DNA of 64,000 nt. It comes from a phage. Below, piece after piece: positions 29,997 to 56,530 of this stretch. The stretch lies in the sequence record NC_129898.1; one strand, 5' to 3'. The position numbers were made by a program, and so were the translations under genes. Numbering within the stretch: position 1 is the stretch's first letter; every line of letters begins with the position of its first letter. Under the pieces are notes generated by a model. That model worked only from the letters and a program-made list of their open reading frames with translations. It was not told the origin of the DNA and searched no databases.

Positions 29997-30450
29997 GGTA
30001 ACCCTCTATCCACGAAAAGTCAGTCTTCCATTCCGGAACTTTACTAAGCTCACGCCACTCTGCAAAGCAGTCTCGGTAATAGGCCTCTGCCATACCTTTA
30101 GTGATCTTATTCACCTTAGCCAACTGATTAACTGCCTGAGCATACTTCCCACGGATATTTGCTAACCCAGGGTGCACCGATGTGTGACAATCCGGGCACA
30201 GAGCTATCAGTCCGACAAGCCGGATCACCCCCTCTTCGAAGGTGTAAAGTTCATGACACTCCACAGGGTGTTTGCTACCTTTGCCGCCACACACCTCGCA
30301 AGTGTAGTTGGCCTCTCTGTAGCACTTCTTACGGATCTTATCCCACTCACTCTTCTTCACAGCGTTTCGGAGGTTATTATACCAAGCTGTTTCTGGGATC
30401 AGTTGTACAATAAGCCTGCGTTCAGACTTCATTAAACGTCCGTCTTCCAC
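29986..30450 (-). CDS. zinc-binding HNH-like nuclease candidate
   Basis: CEVCG...ECHELY...LCPDCHTSVH Cys/His pattern. Confidence 0.4.
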   Translation of the reverse strand: MEDGRLMKSERRLIVQLIPETAWYNNLRNAVKKSEWDKIRKKCYREANYTCEVCGGKGSKHPVECHELYTFEEGVIRLVGLIALCPDCHTSVHPGLANIRGKYAQAVNQLAKVNKITKGMAEAYYRDCFAEWRELSKVPEWKTDFSWIEGYLDG

Positions 30451-31341: not shown

Positions 31342-32625
31342 CTATTCCAGAACATCCCAAGTGTCTGGATTAACATTTCGGACGCAGATACCGACAGGGA
31401 ATTGGTAGTTGTTGTCTTCTGTCCTTGCTTGATATTTAAAGGTGACAAACTTGCCGATCATTTCCTGCATCCTGCTATAGCTACGCTCCTCGTGCGTGCC
31501 TTTCATCTTCATTTTAACAACGATGCCTTCCTTGTCAACGCAGATAAGAACACCCTCATCATTCTTATCTTTCTCAACGTCAATAACTTTCACCTCTGCG
31601 TCGTTGAACTTTTTCCATTTCAATGCTTCAGATGTTCGCTGACCGTATTCGTATTTACCACAGAAGTTACGCATGATAGTACCTTCATACCCTTCGGACA
31701 TGAATACACCAACAGATTCTTCGCAATGATCAACTGTGTACGCAATCTCTGCGTCAACAACCTTGATATGGTCAAGCATCAGAGTGGTAATGGTATCTTC
31801 TGCATCCATAAGATCCTTGCAGCGTCCAGACTCTGTTTCTGGATCCCACCACACCTTGTCACTAGGGATATCAAAAATGTGATACTCTAAGTCATAGCTA
31901 CAGTACCCTCCGTAACGCAAATCATCACGAACAGGCTCAACATCAACAGGAATATCTACCTTATTGAAGTTTTTGTATGTTGATAAGCCTGCCTTAATTG
32001 CGGCATGACGGCGTTTTTTATCTGCCTCGTAGTCTTTATCGATCTCGGCCTGAATCTCTTCCTGTGTGCGCCACCGTTTAGCAAGAGACACTATTTTCTG
32101 CAGAGGCAGACCATGAATATAGATCTCTCCGTCGAGCTGTTTAATCCCGGTGGTGAAGTGGAAAGAACGAAGTTGCTCCAGAAGCTTTCCTTGAATAGGG
32201 TAGGACTTATTACCACGGGAAATAAATTTAGGCTCCCCATTTTGGAAAACAACAAGTAGACGAAGGCCATCTAACTTACGCAAGATCCAGCAAGGTAATT
32301 TAAGTGCCTTTCCACGCTTCAGGTAGTCATGCACCAGCATGGGTAAAAGGTCAACGCCCTGCTCGCAATCTTCCATATTTTCAACATACCCCAGACGGAC
32401 TTGTTTTTCCCACTTACTGATCGCTTCCAGCTCAGCCTGTTGCTCAGCTGTAGTTTCATTGGCACGACCAACGTTCTTAGGTGTGCAGATCGTCTCTTTG
32501 TATTGCAGTTTACCGTCAAGCTTGCCAAACTCTACGATAACCTTATCACCATCCGTGAATACTTTCCACTGTTGGTAGCTGCCATCTTTGTTCAGTGCGT
32601 ACAGTGTTGTTTTGATCTGATGCAT
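31342..32625 (-). CDS. ATP-dependent DNA ligase
   Basis: Motif I RKLDGLR (KxDGxR), motif IV EGTIMRN, motif V ALKWKKF; 427 aa. Confidence 0.7.
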   Translation of the reverse strand: MHQIKTTLYALNKDGSYQQWKVFTDGDKVIVEFGKLDGKLQYKETICTPKNVGRANETTAEQQAELEAISKWEKQVRLGYVENMEDCEQGVDLLPMLVHDYLKRGKALKLPCWILRKLDGLRLLVVFQNGEPKFISRGNKSYPIQGKLLEQLRSFHFTTGIKQLDGEIYIHGLPLQKIVSLAKRWRTQEEIQAEIDKDYEADKKRRHAAIKAGLSTYKNFNKVDIPVDVEPVRDDLRYGGYCSYDLEYHIFDIPSDKVWWDPETESGRCKDLMDAEDTITTLMLDHIKVVDAEIAYTVDHCEESVGVFMSEGYEGTIMRNFCGKYEYGQRTSEALKWKKFNDAEVKVIDVEKDKNDEGVLICVDKEGIVVKMKMKGTHEERSYSRMQEMIGKFVTFKYQARTEDNNYQFPVGICVRNVNPDTWDVLE

Positions 32626-37154: not shown

Positions 37155-37505
37155 ATGAAAGAGGAGGATAAGCTGCCATACCTTAAAGTCCCATTTGGAA
37201 TACTGTCTATGTCAAAAGTTTTGAATGATACAACTGGAGAGGTTGTTGTTCTTGACTTGTATGACAAGATCGTATACTGCTACCTGCACAACTGGTATAA
37301 GCTTGGAGGAAATTCACGCTTCACACCCAGCACAAGGAAAATTGCAGCAGATGTTGGGATAAAGAAAACAAAAGCAGCAGCGTGCGTTAAAACTTTAGAA
37401 TGTGCAGGAGTGGTTGAAATATCCACACAAGGGAGAGGTAAAAGATGCACATTTTCCAAAGTTTTGCCACCAGAAGAGGTTATTCGAATGTCAACAACTG
37501 GTTAG
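37155..37505 (+). CDS. helix-turn-helix DNA-binding protein candidate
   Basis: STRKIAADVGIKKTKAAACVKTLECAGVVE HTH-like segment; 116 aa; immediately upstream of the palindrome array. Confidence 0.45.
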   Translation: MKEEDKLPYLKVPFGILSMSKVLNDTTGEVVVLDLYDKIVYCYLHNWYKLGGNSRFTPSTRKIAADVGIKKTKAAACVKTLECAGVVEISTQGRGKRCTFSKVLPPEEVIRMSTTG

Positions 37506-37580
37506 ACCAGTAAAAACTTAAATATCTGTACTATAAGGATTCGTATGTTTTATGTCCATCCAAGAGCAGAGGGTAGTAAC

Positions 37581-37661
37581 TGTCCGTGATACGGACACTA
37601 CTGTCCGTCACGCGGACACATCTGCCCGTAATACGGACACTAACTGTCCGCAATACGGACA
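37581..37661. repeat. array of four 17-bp palindromic operator-like sites at ~21-bp pitch
   Basis: TGTCCGTGATACGGACA (37581-37597), TGTCCGTCACGCGGACA (37602-37618), TGCCCGTAATACGGACA (37623-37639), TGTCCGCAATACGGACA (37645-37661); half-sites TGTCCGT/ACGGACA. Confidence 0.7.
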
Positions 37662-37800
37662 CATAAAGAATATAACTAAAATAACTAAATAATAAAAAAA
37701 AATAAAAGATCTAGTAATTATGGTACTAAAGTACATATACTTAACTTATGTAGAATATACTAGATCCTAAGTACCATGTTTTAAATTTATTACTTACTAT

Positions 37801-38160
37801 TGGTAGTGTCGGCCCTTCATTGGCACTCGCCTACGAGGGGCGAGATGCCGGGCCTCCATAGTGCACACAATGACAGGAGTGCATACATGCAGGACTGTTA
37901 ACATGTGTGGGAGCGAAGCTATAGCGCAGGCCAAAGGCCGAGCACTAATGTGGACCACCGACGAAAGCTTGCCAGCGCCGTAAGGAGTCGGTTGAGAGCC
38001 TCCCGCGCGAGTTTAGTTAAAGTTTATGTGTGGAAACGGACAGGAAGGCCCCTAAATCGCCACACAGCTGCGTAAACTATACCAAGTAAGGCAATCGCAC
38101 CAGTTTGATAGAAAAGCTCGTTACAAAGCGATACAGTGAGTTTTTCTATAACTTGAAGAG
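37801..38160 (+). ncRNA. GC-rich ORF-free structured block (candidate non-coding RNA or leader)
   Basis: No ORF >=60 aa on either strand; nested helix GGCCC/GGGCC, GGCA/TGCC, CTCGCC/GGCGAG at 37811-37854. Confidence 0.25.
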
Positions 38161-39023: not shown

Positions 39024-39266
39024 ATGTTTAAGGTTAAGCTCGTTTTCCGTTCCATGAATGAGGATTATTTAGAAGATGAAGGTGAATTTCGTGCACTAGA
39101 TGATGCAATAGATTTTGCCAACGACTTAGCTTGTATGAACACGGGTTATGGGTTGTGTTGTTGGGACGGTGGTATTCAGATCGGTGATAGCAAAATCTTC
39201 TACTTCTACCCTGAGCCGGATAACAAACAAATTAAGTATGTTTTATTTATTTGTGCTTTACAATGA
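39024..39266 (+). CDS. hypothetical protein
   Basis: 80-aa ORF. Confidence 0.45.
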   Translation: MFKVKLVFRSMNEDYLEDEGEFRALDDAIDFANDLACMNTGYGLCCWDGGIQIGDSKIFYFYPEPDNKQIKYVLFICALQ

Positions 39267-39553
39267 GGTTGTTTTCGTGTATCATGATGAATATCCAATT
39301 TAAAGATGAATTTGATGGCTTTATCTCCGGATGCTTTGAAACAGGGTTCGGAGAATGCTGAGTTCCCATTAGAGGGCTTGATAGTGCACCACACTTAAAA
39401 TGGTAGGGGCAGCCAGCACATGACGATGTGACCCCAGCCAACCTGTAATAAGGTCGAGCCAAAGCGCGGTAATGGGTCTCTGGTAACCCACTTGTTGGGT
39501 CTTGTGGTCCAGGACGCTGGGCAAGTCGCAGGGAATACCACCCTGCGGCGAAC

Positions 39554-39599
39554 TTGACAATCAGTATTTGCCGTGATAAAATCCACCTATCACGTGATA
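39554..39599 (+). promoter_or_regulatory. sigma70-like promoter with overlapping 12-bp palindrome
   Basis: TTGACA (39554-39559), 17-nt spacer, TG-n-TAAAAT (39574-39582); perfect palindrome TATCACGTGATA (39588-39599). Confidence 0.55.
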
Positions 39600-39610
39600 A
39601 TGGAGGAAAC

Positions 39611-39949
39611 ATGGCGGATACAACTAAAAAGCGTCGCCGTAGAGGCAGACCTCTGAAAGAGGAGTCCAACGCCATTCAGCTAGAGAAGAACATTCTTGAT
39701 ATGAAGGAATCTTTTATAGCGATGGTTCCAGAAGCTCACAAAGTTTTAAGAGAGCTGATGTTGGATCCGAAAACCAAGCAAAATATTCGTCAAAGCATTG
39801 CAGAGTATGTTCTTGATAAGGCAGACCGAATGCAGGAAGAATATGATGAGATGTTTGGTGAAGAGGAAGAGGTGGTAGTAGAAGAGGCTGAAAAACCAGC
39901 ACCTTTTATGCCATTTACCACAGAAATACAGCCTGTTAGCAATAGCTAA
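39611..39949 (+). CDS. hypothetical protein with Arg-rich DNA-binding N-terminus
   Basis: ATG 39611 with GGAGG RBS; MADTTKKRRRRGRPLK then acidic C-terminus; possible small terminase or regulator. Confidence 0.5.
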   Translation: MADTTKKRRRRGRPLKEESNAIQLEKNILDMKESFIAMVPEAHKVLRELMLDPKTKQNIRQSIAEYVLDKADRMQEEYDEMFGEEEEVVVEEAEKPAPFMPFTTEIQPVSNS

Positions 39950-40045: not shown

Positions 40046-40117
40046 GCCCTGTTAGCTTAGTGGATAAAGCAGCGGCCTTCTAAGCCGTTGACACTGGTTC
40101 GAGTCCAGTACGGGGTG
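40046..40117 (+). tRNA. tRNA-Arg (anticodon TCT)
   Basis: Acceptor GCCCTGT/ACGGGGT, D-stem GCTT/AAGC, anticodon loop CTTCTAA, T-loop TTCGAGT, CCA encoded. Confidence 0.8.
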
Positions 40118-47216: not shown

Positions 47217-48227
47217 ATGATTACTCGTAAAGATGAATTTGGCATTGTTGATTTAGGTGCTACTCTGGACCTTGTTCCGCGTCAATTTCGCCTGATCACC
47301 GGTATGGATCTGTTCGAAACTCGTCTTGGCACCTCAACAATTGCTCAGATCGAGCGTGTTGATGAAGTTGTAACCGACATTCCGGCACGCCGTCGTGGCG
47401 GTGAGCGTAACTACGTTGGTAGTGAACGTGCTCAGGTTAAAAACCTGAACATCCCGTTCTTCCCTCTGGACAAAGGCATCACTGCCGCAGATGTTCAGAA
47501 CTTCCGTCGTTACTTCACCCCTGACGCTCCGAAAACTGTTCAGGATGTAGTAACCCGCGTTGTTCGCCGTATCCGTGTTTCTCATGAAGCACTGCGTGAG
47601 AAAGCGCTGTTCCAGGCTATTCTGGGTAAATCCTATGCACCTGGTGACACCACCTGTCAGTATGATTACTACACTCTGTGGGGCGTGTCTCAGAAGTCTG
47701 TTGAGATTGACCCTGCAAAAGCAGATCAGGATCCTATGGAGGTTCTGGAAGAAGCTCGTCTGCACATCGCACTGCAAGCTGGTGATAACGCAGCTGGCTA
47801 CCGTATTGTAGCTCTGTGCTCACCAGAGTTCTTCAGTGCTATTACCCATCACCCGCTGGTAGAACTGGCATACACCTATTACGGCTCTGCTCAGGAACCT
47901 CTGCGTCGCCGTCTGGGTGCTGGCGGTCAGGACAGCGTATACCGTGTGTTTGAACATAAAGGTATCACCTTTATCGAAGATATCTCTGGCAATATTCCTA
48001 AGAAAGAAGCTCGCATTCTGCCGATGGGTATTGATCAGATGTTCCAGCTGCACTTTGCTCCGGCAGATGATGTTAACGAAGCAAACACTCCAGCACAGGA
48101 ACTGTACATGTGGTACAAACACTCTGCATACCTGCGTGAAGAGAAGATTGAATCTGAAACTTCTATGCTGGCAGTTAACACCCGTCCAGAGTTGGTTGTT
48201 AAAGTAACTCTGAAAAACGGTGGCTAA
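47217..48227 (+). CDS. major capsid protein candidate
   Basis: 336 aa; strongly biased codon usage (CTG, CGT, GGT); followed by the strongest terminator in the window. Confidence 0.6.
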   Translation: MITRKDEFGIVDLGATLDLVPRQFRLITGMDLFETRLGTSTIAQIERVDEVVTDIPARRRGGERNYVGSERAQVKNLNIPFFPLDKGITAADVQNFRRYFTPDAPKTVQDVVTRVVRRIRVSHEALREKALFQAILGKSYAPGDTTCQYDYYTLWGVSQKSVEIDPAKADQDPMEVLEEARLHIALQAGDNAAGYRIVALCSPEFFSAITHHPLVELAYTYYGSAQEPLRRRLGAGGQDSVYRVFEHKGITFIEDISGNIPKKEARILPMGIDQMFQLHFAPADDVNEANTPAQELYMWYKHSAYLREEKIESETSMLAVNTRPELVVKVTLKNGG

Positions 48228-54190: not shown

Positions 54191-56530
54191 ATGGCTACAA
54201 ACAAAATAGTTGCCACAACAGTCAACAAGATTGGCTTTGAGATAGAGAACTCCTCCTACAAAAAAGCTGTAGAGAAAATTCGCAGTATTGGGAGGGAGTT
54301 CAGGAAACTGGGCGAGGATTTTAACTCAGCCAACCCAATGAGTAGATGGCAGGCAGTGGCTGTTAAAACCCAGCAAACAATGCAGCGGGTTGCCAGACAG
54401 CAATCTCAGGCAAATGCTAAACTTCACAGGGAGAGCGTAGCACAAGCCAAGAAAGAGGCTGCAGTAAGGGCTGCAATAGAACGTAGGGAAAACGCAAGAC
54501 GTAAACAGGCTGTAGGTAATCTTACCGCTAAAAATCCAGAAATGGCCAGGATGCGTAAGTTCTACCAGCAGCAAGCTAAAGAGGCCAAAAAGGCTGCCAA
54601 ATCTACACCAGTGTCTTACGGCGGTTATAAGGCACCAAAGGCAAGAGTTTTGGCTAATGCCAAATCTTTCAAGTATATCCCAGGTAACCCTAATATGGGT
54701 GGTGTGGCTTCCGACCCTAACCTTGTGAAAGCTCAGACAGCCGCTATGAATCGTTATCATAGACAGCTAAGAAGAGACAGTAAAGCTGGTATGGATAATA
54801 AGCTTATGTCTGATCGTGAGGCAAGGAGAACCCACCTCTACAACTCTGCGATAAGACTTTCTGCCAAGTATGGGGCCGGATTCCGTGGAAGCTTGGCAGG
54901 ATACTCAGAGTTAGAGTCCAGGTTTGCTCGCGGGGAGATGAAAAAGTCAACCTTTAACGCCCACCTGTCAGCTCTGCAGTCTGGATTTAAAAGCGCCACC
55001 AGCCAAACGCTTACACTAGGTGATGCCATGAGGGACTTACGTAGGTCTGTTATTAATGCAACAGCTGCGTATACTGCTTTCTCTGGATTTACTGCTGTGA
55101 ACAGATCTGGTCACATGATGGAGGGGGCAAGTGCTGCTCTTACTGCTGTTACTGGAGATCCAAACAAAGCCAACAGTGAGGTTGCGTTTGTCCAGCAAGA
55201 GGCTATGCGTCTTGGTTTTGATCTCAAATCTGGTCTTCAAGGTTACGCCCAGATGGCGGTAAACGCCAAAAACCAGATGACAAATCAAGAGGTGCATGAG
55301 CTATTCTCTGCATACTCACAGTATGCTGCTGCTTACGGTGCCGATGAGGTAAAATACCAGCGTGGCATCATGGCAATCCAGCAAATGCTCGGTAAAGGAC
55401 AGGTAATGTCCGAAGAACTGAAGCAACAACTTGCTGAAGCATTGCCTGGTGCATACGAACCTTTTATCAAAGCCACCAAAGAGGCTTTTGGTCTTTCTGA
55501 ACTATCCATGGATCAGTTCATGGACATGATGAAGAAAGGTGAGGTTAAAACAGCCAAGATCATGAAGTATGTGGCTAAGTACATGAACGAGGCATCTGCA
55601 GCTGGTTATGAAAGAATGCAGAAGTCTAACGTACTGGCAGAAAACAGGCTGAAAACCTTCATCGAACTATCTCGTCAGAAGCTGTTCACCCGTTGGGCTG
55701 ATGAATTAACAGAGTTCTATTATACACTGATTCGCACAGGTGAGACTTTGCAATTTGTGTGGGATGCCTCTGGTGATTTTGTTAGCGGGTTTGTGAGAGG
55801 CCTCAACTGGGTAGTTGGTGAACTAAACAATACCATAGTCAAGATCCGCATGTTTTTCCTTGAATGGGGGATTAAATGGGGATTCATAACAGCTAAGACG
55901 AAGGAATATTCTGAAGAGCTTAATGACACCTTTAGCTATGCTAAATGGGCAGGGTTTGCTGCTGCCATCATGCTGGTAGTGAACGCCCTGACAAAAGGTT
56001 TTGTCATGGCATCTATGCTTGTAAAAACCTTCAAATTCCTTAGTTCTATAAGAGGCGCAGCTGGAGCAGCAGGTGCAGGTGCAGCTACCACAGAAGGATC
56101 TGGTGGTGGTGCGGCAGGAAAAGGGGGAGGTGGCCTCAAGACACCTGGCGGTAAAGTTGGCCTGCTTGGGAAGCTTGGTATTATCGGTACAATATTAAGT
56201 GCCGGGGAGTTATTTAATGACCGTTTCAACCCGCTGAGTGAGAGAAATCAGCAACTGGATACTATCAGCGATATGATTCGCAAAGATATCATATCGGGAG
56301 GTAACGGGTTTGTTGATCCTTTGGACACCTTACCGGGAGGGACTCTTCCGTTGCCGGGTGGTCCTGGTTTTGCTTCTCAATTAAGAACTATGGAAATGCT
56401 ACCTTTAGAGATCAGTGATGGCAAAATCACGATTTCAATAGATGAGGGGGAGTTTAGCAAAATACTTGATGCAAAACTTGAGTGGGAGAATAACAAAGAT
56501 ATTAACTTTATGTCAACAGATCTTTGGTAA
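54191..56530 (+). CDS. tail tape measure protein
   Basis: 779 aa, Ala/Gln/Lys-rich helical N-terminal half, hydrophobic segment and Gly-rich tract (GAAGAAGAGAATTEGSGGGAAGKGGGG); follows the chaperone pair. Confidence 0.75.
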   Translation: MATNKIVATTVNKIGFEIENSSYKKAVEKIRSIGREFRKLGEDFNSANPMSRWQAVAVKTQQTMQRVARQQSQANAKLHRESVAQAKKEAAVRAAIERRENARRKQAVGNLTAKNPEMARMRKFYQQQAKEAKKAAKSTPVSYGGYKAPKARVLANAKSFKYIPGNPNMGGVASDPNLVKAQTAAMNRYHRQLRRDSKAGMDNKLMSDREARRTHLYNSAIRLSAKYGAGFRGSLAGYSELESRFARGEMKKSTFNAHLSALQSGFKSATSQTLTLGDAMRDLRRSVINATAAYTAFSGFTAVNRSGHMMEGASAALTAVTGDPNKANSEVAFVQQEAMRLGFDLKSGLQGYAQMAVNAKNQMTNQEVHELFSAYSQYAAAYGADEVKYQRGIMAIQQMLGKGQVMSEELKQQLAEALPGAYEPFIKATKEAFGLSELSMDQFMDMMKKGEVKTAKIMKYVAKYMNEASAAGYERMQKSNVLAENRLKTFIELSRQKLFTRWADELTEFYYTLIRTGETLQFVWDASGDFVSGFVRGLNWVVGELNNTIVKIRMFFLEWGIKWGFITAKTKEYSEELNDTFSYAKWAGFAAAIMLVVNALTKGFVMASMLVKTFKFLSSIRGAAGAAGAGAATTEGSGGGAAGKGGGGLKTPGGKVGLLGKLGIIGTILSAGELFNDRFNPLSERNQQLDTISDMIRKDIISGGNGFVDPLDTLPGGTLPLPGGPGFASQLRTMEMLPLEISDGKITISIDEGEFSKILDAKLEWENNKDINFMSTDLW

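Follow-up and report, generated by a model that had tools for sequence, protein, structure and literature searches.

A putative structured RNA upstream of promoter P74 in rV5-like coliphages has a junction core in common with T4-like and other enterobacterial phages

What is encoded by a GC-rich stretch devoid of convincing ORFs that lies just upstream of a strong promoter in an rV5-like coliphage? The stretch belongs to a 64,000-nucleotide segment of phage DNA (sequence record NC_129898.1, called here the window), and the preliminary description had delimited it as a GC-rich, helix-forming block at positions 39290-39553. The window comes from an rV5/FV3-like coliphage (Vequintavirus), and the region is 99.9% identical to that of Escherichia phage EPFV3-03/2025 and 97-98% identical to those of FV3 and rV5. 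The rV5 counterpart of the block is located between ORF75 (39024-39266 in the window) and the annotated promoter P74 and carries no annotated feature. The whole region is kept at 94.5% identity or more in all 118 Vequintavirus records that match a 701-nt query. Eighteen MG0656xx records titled 'Campylobacter phage' are ~97% identical to coliphage rV5 across the region; they are likely mislabelled or contaminant genomes.

The G+C content climbs to 51-60% between positions 39350 and 39550. It amounts to 55.7% for positions 39362-39553, compared with a mean of 43.1% (SD 3.7) for all 192-nt intervals across the 64 kb, only 0.1% of which reach that value. The first 70 nt of the block as initially delimited (39290-39361) are AT-richer and poorly conserved, with 46% identity to a sister clade of rV5-likes, and hence the conserved element starts near 39362 and is preceded by a leader. 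The GC-rich character noted initially thus holds for positions 39362-39553, but not for 39290-39361. The 3' end of the element falls at 39546-39553, directly 5' of the TTGACA box of P74 at 39554. Together with the G+C content, an alignment of 12 rV5-like sequences defines a full conserved RNA element of the rV5-likes of ~190 nt on the plus strand (39362-39553). Within the leader, the two rV5-like clades share an unchanged AAAGATGAATTTGATGGCTTT (39301-39321) in a spacer that otherwise shows only 46% identity. This sequence forms, in the sister-clade member L035, an eight-codon ORF (MKDEFDGF) that follows a Shine-Dalgarno sequence and is located just upstream of the promoter of the RNA. Other 192-nt intervals of the window with at least 54% G+C are found at 30131-30352, 47731-47952 and 56051-56242, comparable to the two GC-rich blocks flagged initially.

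We examined the pairings along the rV5-type element. Its 5' module (39365-39395) is predicted to form a CCC/GGG hairpin (39365-39376) and an AGUG/CACU hairpin (39383-39395) separated by CUUGAU; the corresponding columns are invariant within the rV5-likes, and the module is class-specific and shows no covariation. It is followed by hairpin P1 (39406-39435), which has an outer GGGG/CCCC helix, a CAGCCAG internal loop, an inner CACAU/AUGUG helix (39417-39430) and a GACG loop. In the sister clade, the two helices read GGAAC/GUUCC and CUACG/CGUAG around an unchanged GACG loop, and six P1 pairs differ in both bases between the clades. The pairing of GGGG (39406-39409) with CCCC (39432-39435), one of two helices initially proposed, is therefore confirmed by its covariation with GGAAC/GUUCC of the sister clade. 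The other, between GGGTCTCTGG and CCAGGAC, has to be abandoned: the GGGU sequence is the 3' strand of the helix that closes a three-way junction, and CCAG (39510-39513) pairs locally with CUGG (39518-39521), with compensatory changes in L034. All other classes of phages described below also have a hairpin ahead of the junction that is equivalent to P1 but unrelated in sequence.

The hairpins on the 3' side of the junction differ in their conservation. P3 (39486-39500; ACCCA/UGGGU) has an A-U pair changed to U-A in L034, is class-specific and dispensable, as it is deleted in phiWec189 and truncated in L191. P4 (39507-39522) has the stem GUCCAG/CUGGGC and a second GACG loop. Its stem reads GUCCAG/CUGGAC in rV5 and GCUCAG/CUGAGC in L034, with two pairs changed on both sides, and its counterpart in the sister clade is GCUGG/CCAGC around GGACGGA. 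P5 (39528-39546; GCAGGG/CCCUGC) is predicted in all minimum-free-energy folds, has no U-tract and ends 7 nt before P74; it is invariant in the rV5 clade and absent from the sister clade. In the rV5-like alignment, 97% of the proposed pairs can form and 8 pairs are changed on both sides, compared with 27-43% pairing for slid controls, although the alignment (A3) was fitted by hand and much of the covariation stems from the single split between the two clades. RNAalifold applied to a MAFFT alignment mis-registered P1 and proposed to pair GUUCC with GGRRC and ACC with GGU instead. We did not follow these alternatives, as other classes provide independent support for P1.

A pseudoknot between the P1 loop and the 3' tail is possible. 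In the window, CUGGU (39480-39484) could pair with GCCAG (39412-39416) in the P1 internal loop, and complementary sequences occur at the same places elsewhere: CUCCGG/CCGGAG in Ivi, GUGAGGG/CCCUUAC in L035, CCAGC/GCUGG in phiWec189, CGGA/UCCG in class C and CGGUU/AGCCG in L195. This pairing is absent in T4 and L189, and a crude automated search for a hairpin plus loop-tail complementarity performed no better than with shuffled loops.

A sensitive blastn search with positions 39267-39560 retrieved 984 phage records, 118 of which are full-length rV5-likes. The ~866 others match only positions 39431-39477, with ~90-95% identity. The common part contains a core of constant length, 32 nt (39441-39472), that reads ACCUGU-RRN-AAGGUCGAGC-NNN-AG-N-GCGGUAA. 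The 32 distinct sequences compared all agree at 26 of the 32 core positions and at a G residue two bases 3' of the core, and their flanks are unrelated. In T4 and other Tevenvirinae, which account for most members, the core is located between denV and vs.8 on the coding strand (T4 copy: NC_000866, 64850-64907, minus strand), i.e. in an intercistronic region of the mRNA, 45-100 nt ahead of vs.8. It is also present in the 45-kb phage Ivi, in the phAPEC8-like Phapecoctavirus phages DE16, phiWec188 and phiWec190, in Pylasvirus (the N4-like phage Pylas), in 46-kb viral contigs and in the metagenome contig L195, in which it sits between two tRNAs. The motif is always oriented like the neighbouring genes or tRNAs. 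A covariation analysis had been proposed on the basis of the window; it supports the helices, but the key part of the element is this core common to T4-like and other phages, which is invisible from the window alone.

We found no blastn match to the motif in 5,426 complete Escherichia coli genomes. A pattern scan of bacterial genomes yielded at least 120 matches, but all those listed are in GC-rich, coding-like sequences and lack the 5' half of the core (CCUGU...A), and we therefore regard them as chance matches. From these searches, the motif appears to be confined to phages of Enterobacterales. Within the window, a weak model match at 31748-31804 was rejected as a second copy, as it falls within a 427-aa ORF and does not have the invariant bases. 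The first GC-rich block of the window (37801-38160) gave no model match either and is found only in Vequintavirus, so that we did not retain a kinship with the element. That block belongs to what looks like a replication origin region (37155-38160): the ORF at 37155-37505 matches families of replication initiators (PHROG 12838, HTH_36) and is followed on its 3' side by about five iteron-like repeats ACGGACAC (37575-37660), a stretch of 20% G+C (37650-37790) and the ORF-free block itself.

Some phages harbour additional copies of the motif. In some T4-like phages (L020, 5087-5142; L024, 9130-9185), the first copy is followed ~110 nt downstream by a diverged tandem copy, CCUGUAAUAAGG(C/U)CAG(U/C)CCGCG(A/G)CGGUAA. 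In the T4-like contig L041 (1189-1214), ACCUG-AGGUCGAGCCGAAGCGCGGUA corresponds to the core without the Pb loop described below (24 bits); it may be a degenerate copy or have arisen by chance.

The core and its closing helix can be folded into a three-way junction (39437-39477, plus strand). The closing helix, Pa, pairs the 5' strand GCCA (39437-39440) with U39473, G39475, G39476 and U39477, with G39474 as an invariant bulge. Hairpin Pb (39441-39454) consists of an ACCU/AGGU stem and a GUAAUA hexaloop (family consensus GURRNA). It is followed by the junction strand CGA, the mini-hairpin Pc and the junction strand GGUAA (39455-39472), in which the A, the GC...GC pattern and the GGUAA are invariant. 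Pc is made of the pairs G39458-C39467 and C39459-G39466 around a CAAAGC loop. This fold is supported by the covariation of Pa: its three inner pairs are paired in all 32 distinct sequences and occur as AU/UA/UG/CG/GC, CG/GC/UA/GU and CG/GC, i.e. as five, four and two pair types, respectively. None of 500 shuffles reached the covariation score of Pa, and slid registers are only 23-49% paired. Since the G·U pairs would be A·C mismatches on the opposite strand, the RNA corresponds to the plus strand. The Pb stem is invariant in the alignment and loop positions 3-5 vary; in the diverged second copy of L020, the stem becomes GCCU/AGGC. In Pc, a C-G pair is replaced by G-C in L034, and a U-A pair in one of the second copies of L020 and L024 corresponds to C-G in the other. 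Compensatory substitutions as expected of a structured non-coding RNA are thus found both in Pa and in the rV5-like alignment.

In contrast to covariation, folding energies are unremarkable. For positions 39267-39553, the plus and minus strands have z-scores of -1.86 and -0.75, respectively, relative to shuffled sequences, and those of the minimal domain in six phages range from -1.5 to +1.1, no better than shuffled sequences. Such values suit a junction whose very short helices would need tertiary contacts or a partner.

We analysed the promoters and terminators around the motif. Directly downstream of the block, the preliminary description had placed a TTGACA promoter. This is P74 as annotated in rV5 (39554-39582; TTGACA-17-TAAAAT, extended -10, 11 of 12 consensus positions). 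It serves ORF74 (39611-39949) and a tRNA cluster that starts at 40046, 500 nt downstream of the element, and it is the 3' boundary of the RNA rather than a part of it. The nearest upstream candidate start is a promoter-like TTTACA-17-TATCAT sequence (39257-39285) that matches 10 of 12 positions in a consensus scan but is not conserved in the L035 clade; alternatively, the RNA could arise by read-through from P75 at 38944. In the sister clade (L035-L038 and L187), the conserved part of the RNA begins 7-10 nt downstream of a TTGACA-17-TATACT promoter with an extended -10 (11 of 12 positions), and its last hairpin is directly followed by the next promoter. No terminator-like site was detected on the plus strand between 37400 and 40200; P5 did not score as one, and as no U-tract follows the GC-rich hairpin, we discarded an intrinsic terminator as the identity of the element.

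In DE16, the motif is flanked by tRNA-Thr and tRNA-Gly, within an operon of 10 tRNAs that has promoters at 1739 and 2894 and whose only good terminator follows the last tRNA. In Pylas, it also belongs to a tRNA operon; in class C, Pylas and L195, it is 20-730 nt from tRNAs on the same strand. As Pylas and DE16 show, it can follow tRNAs as well as precede them. In class C and DE16, the unit as a whole is closed by an 8-bp stem (GUUGUGAC/GUCACAAC and GUUGUGAA/UUCACAAC), and in the spacers of both, the boxA-like words UGCUCUUU/GCUCUUA lie next to the motif. In Ivi, the motif is just 3' of a terminator-like hairpin, with only a weak promoter candidate.

These neighbourhoods contain other features. 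In Ivi (L006), two short units made of a promoter and a hairpin with a U-tract flank the motif (1331-1425 and 1553-1650). They may represent genes for small RNAs, and CACCUCCU is found in the downstream unit. The tRNA arrays of DE16 (L196, 2434-2720) and of L010, L012, L022 and L026 hold further non-tRNA cassettes between inverted repeats AAGAGCAUUG...CAGUGCUCUU, which themselves contain the boxA-like words; these cassettes may be small RNAs or signals for processing or antitermination. ORF74, which begins with MADTTKKRRRRGRPLK, and its DE16 counterpart (L196, 3709-4005), which begins with MPKLKRGRGRP, code for a conserved small protein with an AT-hook-like N-terminus (PHROG 3330) beside the tRNA cluster. 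Pylas (L197/L012, 1520-1595) has a tRNA with a CUA anticodon, called tRNA-Pyl, that is likely an amber suppressor, and L195 (3587-3669) has a tRNA with a four-base anticodon (ctgg). Finally, the large terminase subunit of rV5 (L001, from 5563 onward; from ~42.09 kb in the window) is annotated as three joined pieces (ORF64ABC), which suggests intervening sequences in this gene.

Could the block nevertheless code for a protein? The window does contain a 142-aa ORF on the minus strand (39247..39675), which had been taken initially to be spurious, and some annotations place ORFs at the motif, as in NHEP1 and in T4, where vs.8 (64253-64912) overlaps it. However, the minus-strand ORF is broken even among relatives that are 97% identical: a 1-nt indel cuts it to 71 aa in rV5 and Murica, it is rearranged in phiWec189, and it is absent from the L035-L038 clade, in agreement with the initial opinion. 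There is no plus-strand ORF longer than 36 aa in the block. The variable positions of the core (19-21, 32-34 and 37) show no 3-nt periodicity, and no variation occurs at those that the T4 reading frame would make wobble positions. We thus found neither an ORF conserved among relatives nor variation at synonymous positions, and the motif also occurs in tRNA arrays. As for T4 (NC_000866), the start of the GenBank vs.8 CDS (64253-64912, minus strand) falls inside the RNA motif, and in other T4-likes, e.g. L007, this frame does not run in phase with the conserved start of vs.8 (MKFLTP/MRTFLTG). It is therefore probable that ~43 codons at the beginning of T4 vs.8 are mis-annotated. It is very improbable that the block is coding, either as the minus-strand ORF or as an N-terminal extension of vs.8, or that it is a functionless GC-rich remnant; invariance combined with covariation excludes a neutral remnant. 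A role of the DNA itself, as a protein-binding site, a recombination or homing site or a promoter cassette, would account for the high identity across unrelated phages, which suggests horizontal transfer of a short cassette, and for the frequent proximity of strong promoters. We consider it just as implausible, since the compensatory changes include G·U pairs that would be mismatched in the DNA duplex of the other strand, the orientation is always that of transcription, and the motif is found inside tRNA operons with no adjacent promoter.

The compensatory changes within the rV5-likes and across unrelated phage families bear out the initial proposal that the block upstream of P74 is non-coding and forms helices. 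It is very likely that the block is the gene, or an excised transcript segment, for a structured plus-strand non-coding RNA. As to what this RNA does, the reading that we tentatively prefer, at somewhat less than an even chance, is that of a discrete, stable RNA expressed early, made together with the tRNA-region transcripts and binding a conserved host or phage partner. The host RNA polymerase would transcribe it early in infection from sigma-70-type promoters, within transcripts of the tRNA region, and processing would release a discrete folded RNA. The invariant junction would be presented to a conserved macromolecular partner of the enterobacterial host or of the phage, possibly a defence factor or a component, protein or RNA, of the machineries for translation or RNA processing, that would be bound, titrated or recruited. 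We favour such a partner-binding RNA because the unit is self-contained in four of five contexts and has its own promoter in one clade, and also because it appears confined to phages of Enterobacterales and is far more invariant than its helices require. Universal chemistry would explain its narrow host range and extreme invariance less well than would the recognition of a partner specific to the host. Stable RNAs to which no function has been assigned, such as RNAs C and D of T4, are an old finding in phage tRNA regions. Several observations fit a partner-binding RNA less well: the element has no terminator on its 3' side; the T4-like copies are in an mRNA intercistronic region rather than in a tRNA operon, which is more reminiscent of a cis-acting element; the Ivi copy follows a terminator-like hairpin and has only a weak promoter candidate; the minimal domain folds no more stably than shuffled sequences; and the pseudoknot has no statistical support.

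The mRNA-leader position in T4-likes leaves room for cis-regulatory and processing or ribozyme roles. The motif might be a riboswitch-like aptamer acting on the downstream gene, or an element akin to put or nut, altering the transcribing RNA polymerase or blocking the action of Rho or RNases so that long untranslated transcripts of the tRNA region can be completed. In T4-likes, the leader of the downstream gene indeed always contains it, 45-100 nt upstream of the start, and a conserved hairpin, GCCA(U/A)GGAAUGGC, comes after it. Its many invariant nucleotides and very short, unstable helices are typical of folds that depend on a ligand or a protein, the rV5-likes, DE16 and class C have it at or within long untranslated tRNA operons, and the class C and DE16 spacers provide boxA-like words next to it. 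However, in the rV5-likes and in Ivi the next gene lies beyond a strong promoter, tRNAs follow the motif in DE16 and L195, and tRNA arrays contain no ORF downstream of it that could be regulated. Some T4-likes have a gene other than vs.8 downstream (L021, L045), we found no alternative terminator/anti-terminator structures, and the motif both follows and precedes tRNAs (Pylas, DE16) and belongs to phages of a single host order. On balance, a cis-acting regulatory RNA seems unlikely. Even less probable is a self-cleaving ribozyme, or a recognition module for a dedicated RNase, that splits mRNA from tRNA segments. Small self-cleaving ribozymes (HDV-like 'theta', hammerhead, twister, pistol and hatchet) are common in phage transcripts, including beside phage tRNAs, and the motif is a compact junction with many invariant nucleotides that is found at the boundaries of transcript segments in all classes. 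Nevertheless, no ribozyme family of Rfam 15 matches it, even at permissive thresholds on 200 nt, no conserved position is recognizable as a cleavage site, and the known classes span many host phyla, whereas the motif is found in enterobacterial phages only.

A partner-binding RNA remains our preferred reading. A bolder proposal is that the 32-nt junction is the active centre of an undescribed class of functional RNAs, be it a host-factor decoy or anti-defence RNA, a ribozyme or an aptamer, that is exchanged horizontally among T4-, rV5-, phAPEC8- and N4-like enterobacterial phages. We regard this as possible but rather doubtful; in this proposal, the motif would have been overlooked in T4 because vs.8 is annotated across it. 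The motif is sharply defined, with 26 invariant nucleotides and a covarying closing helix in at least five phage lineages, and its presence in T4 puts genetics, panels of defence systems and structural work immediately to hand. If the RNA binds a host factor or counters a defence system, it would be among the few RNA-based countermeasures of phages, and a catalytic or ligand-binding function would make it a new RNA class. The analysis also calls for corrections of annotations, namely of the spurious ORFs in many Vequintavirus records and of the start of vs.8 in T4.

Lastly, we compared the element with known RNA families. An Rfam scan had been suggested in the preliminary description, and no family matches the element. 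With the 4227 models of Rfam 15 at the gathering threshold, only tRNAs were detected in the window and 10 related loci, and at E<=10, searches of 2.7 kb, of 200 nt and of the DE16 region yielded only noise (microRNA, lncRNA and snoRNA models, 9-19 bits). ARAGORN and the Rfam tRNA model call the flanking tRNAs but do not recognize the motif as a tRNA or tmRNA at any locus. The double T-loop, a tRNA-elbow module, has the signature AGNNA ... UGNNA (PMC3664808). The Pb loop contains UGUAA, but the fifth position is a G in L012 and L017, and there is no conserved AGNNA, with AGCCA in some classes only and AGCCC in the T4-likes; we therefore rejected this identity.

There are local resemblances to rRNA. 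The pattern A-[GC..GC]-GGUAA of the motif equals positions 520-533 of 16S rRNA in the 530 loop (AGCAGCCGCGGUAA), and Pb has the same GUAAUA hexaloop as positions 1093-1098 of 23S rRNA, where it is closed by AGC/GCU. Only these short gapped patterns match, and the order of the helices and the sizes of the loops differ. The estimated chance expectation per rrn operon is ~0.03 for A-[GC..GC]-GGUAA and >1 for the hexamer. A cmsearch of the rrnH operon with model R1 and filters off gave nothing at 16S positions 500-545, with best scores of 4-7 bits elsewhere. We thus discarded rRNA mimicry as an identification and treat the rRNA-like patterns as only a lead. Other short-word resemblances, which we presume to be superficial and do not rely on, are to 5S rRNA, the SRP Alu domain, J11/12 of RNase P (GUGCGGUAA), the CRISPR I-E repeat (GAGUUCCCC at 39359-39367) and the 'UGU' loop of tRNA-Tyr/TGT.

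Like HK022 put RNA and lambda nut, the element would be a short structured RNA in early transcripts of the host polymerase, with boxA-like words beside the motif in class C and DE16. Pb, with its stem ending in CU/AG and its purine-rich loop that starts with G and ends with A, bears what we take to be a superficial resemblance to boxB of lambda nut. However, boxB has a GNRNA pentaloop and Pb a hexaloop, no downstream terminators were detected, and we found no partner similar to lambda N; the basic N-terminus of ORF74 looks rather like an AT-hook (RGRP). With the self-cleaving ribozymes named above, the motif has in common that they are compact, prone to form pseudoknots and present in polycistronic phage RNAs, often beside tRNAs. 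In contrast, none of their covariance models matches the motif, and its topology, a hairpin followed by a three-way junction and possibly a loop-tail pairing, fits none of them.

The core sequence was not found in a literature search, although it may be among the unnamed entries of a catalogue of 10,006 candidate viral structured RNAs, and the T4 literature on denV, RegB and T4 omics contained no mention of an RNA at denV/vs.8. The closest parallels are other orphan RNAs of phages. GOLLD and ROOL are structured RNAs of phages and prophages that are often encoded next to tRNA genes, and both are Rfam families. They are 500-800 nt long, in contrast with 85-190 nt for the element and its 45-nt junction, and neither is among the Rfam matches. 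The stable RNA species 1 and 2 of T4 (rnaC and rnaD) are still described as having 'yet unknown functions' (PMC9697503). As proposed for the element, they are small, stable phage RNAs made together with phage tRNAs. The RNAC probe sequences (PMC9697503) nevertheless share nothing with the core; the T4 motif is at denV/vs.8, outside the tRNA cluster, and the motif is common to several phage families. The element is thus a new family of a known kind, that of the orphan structured phage RNAs found near tRNA genes.
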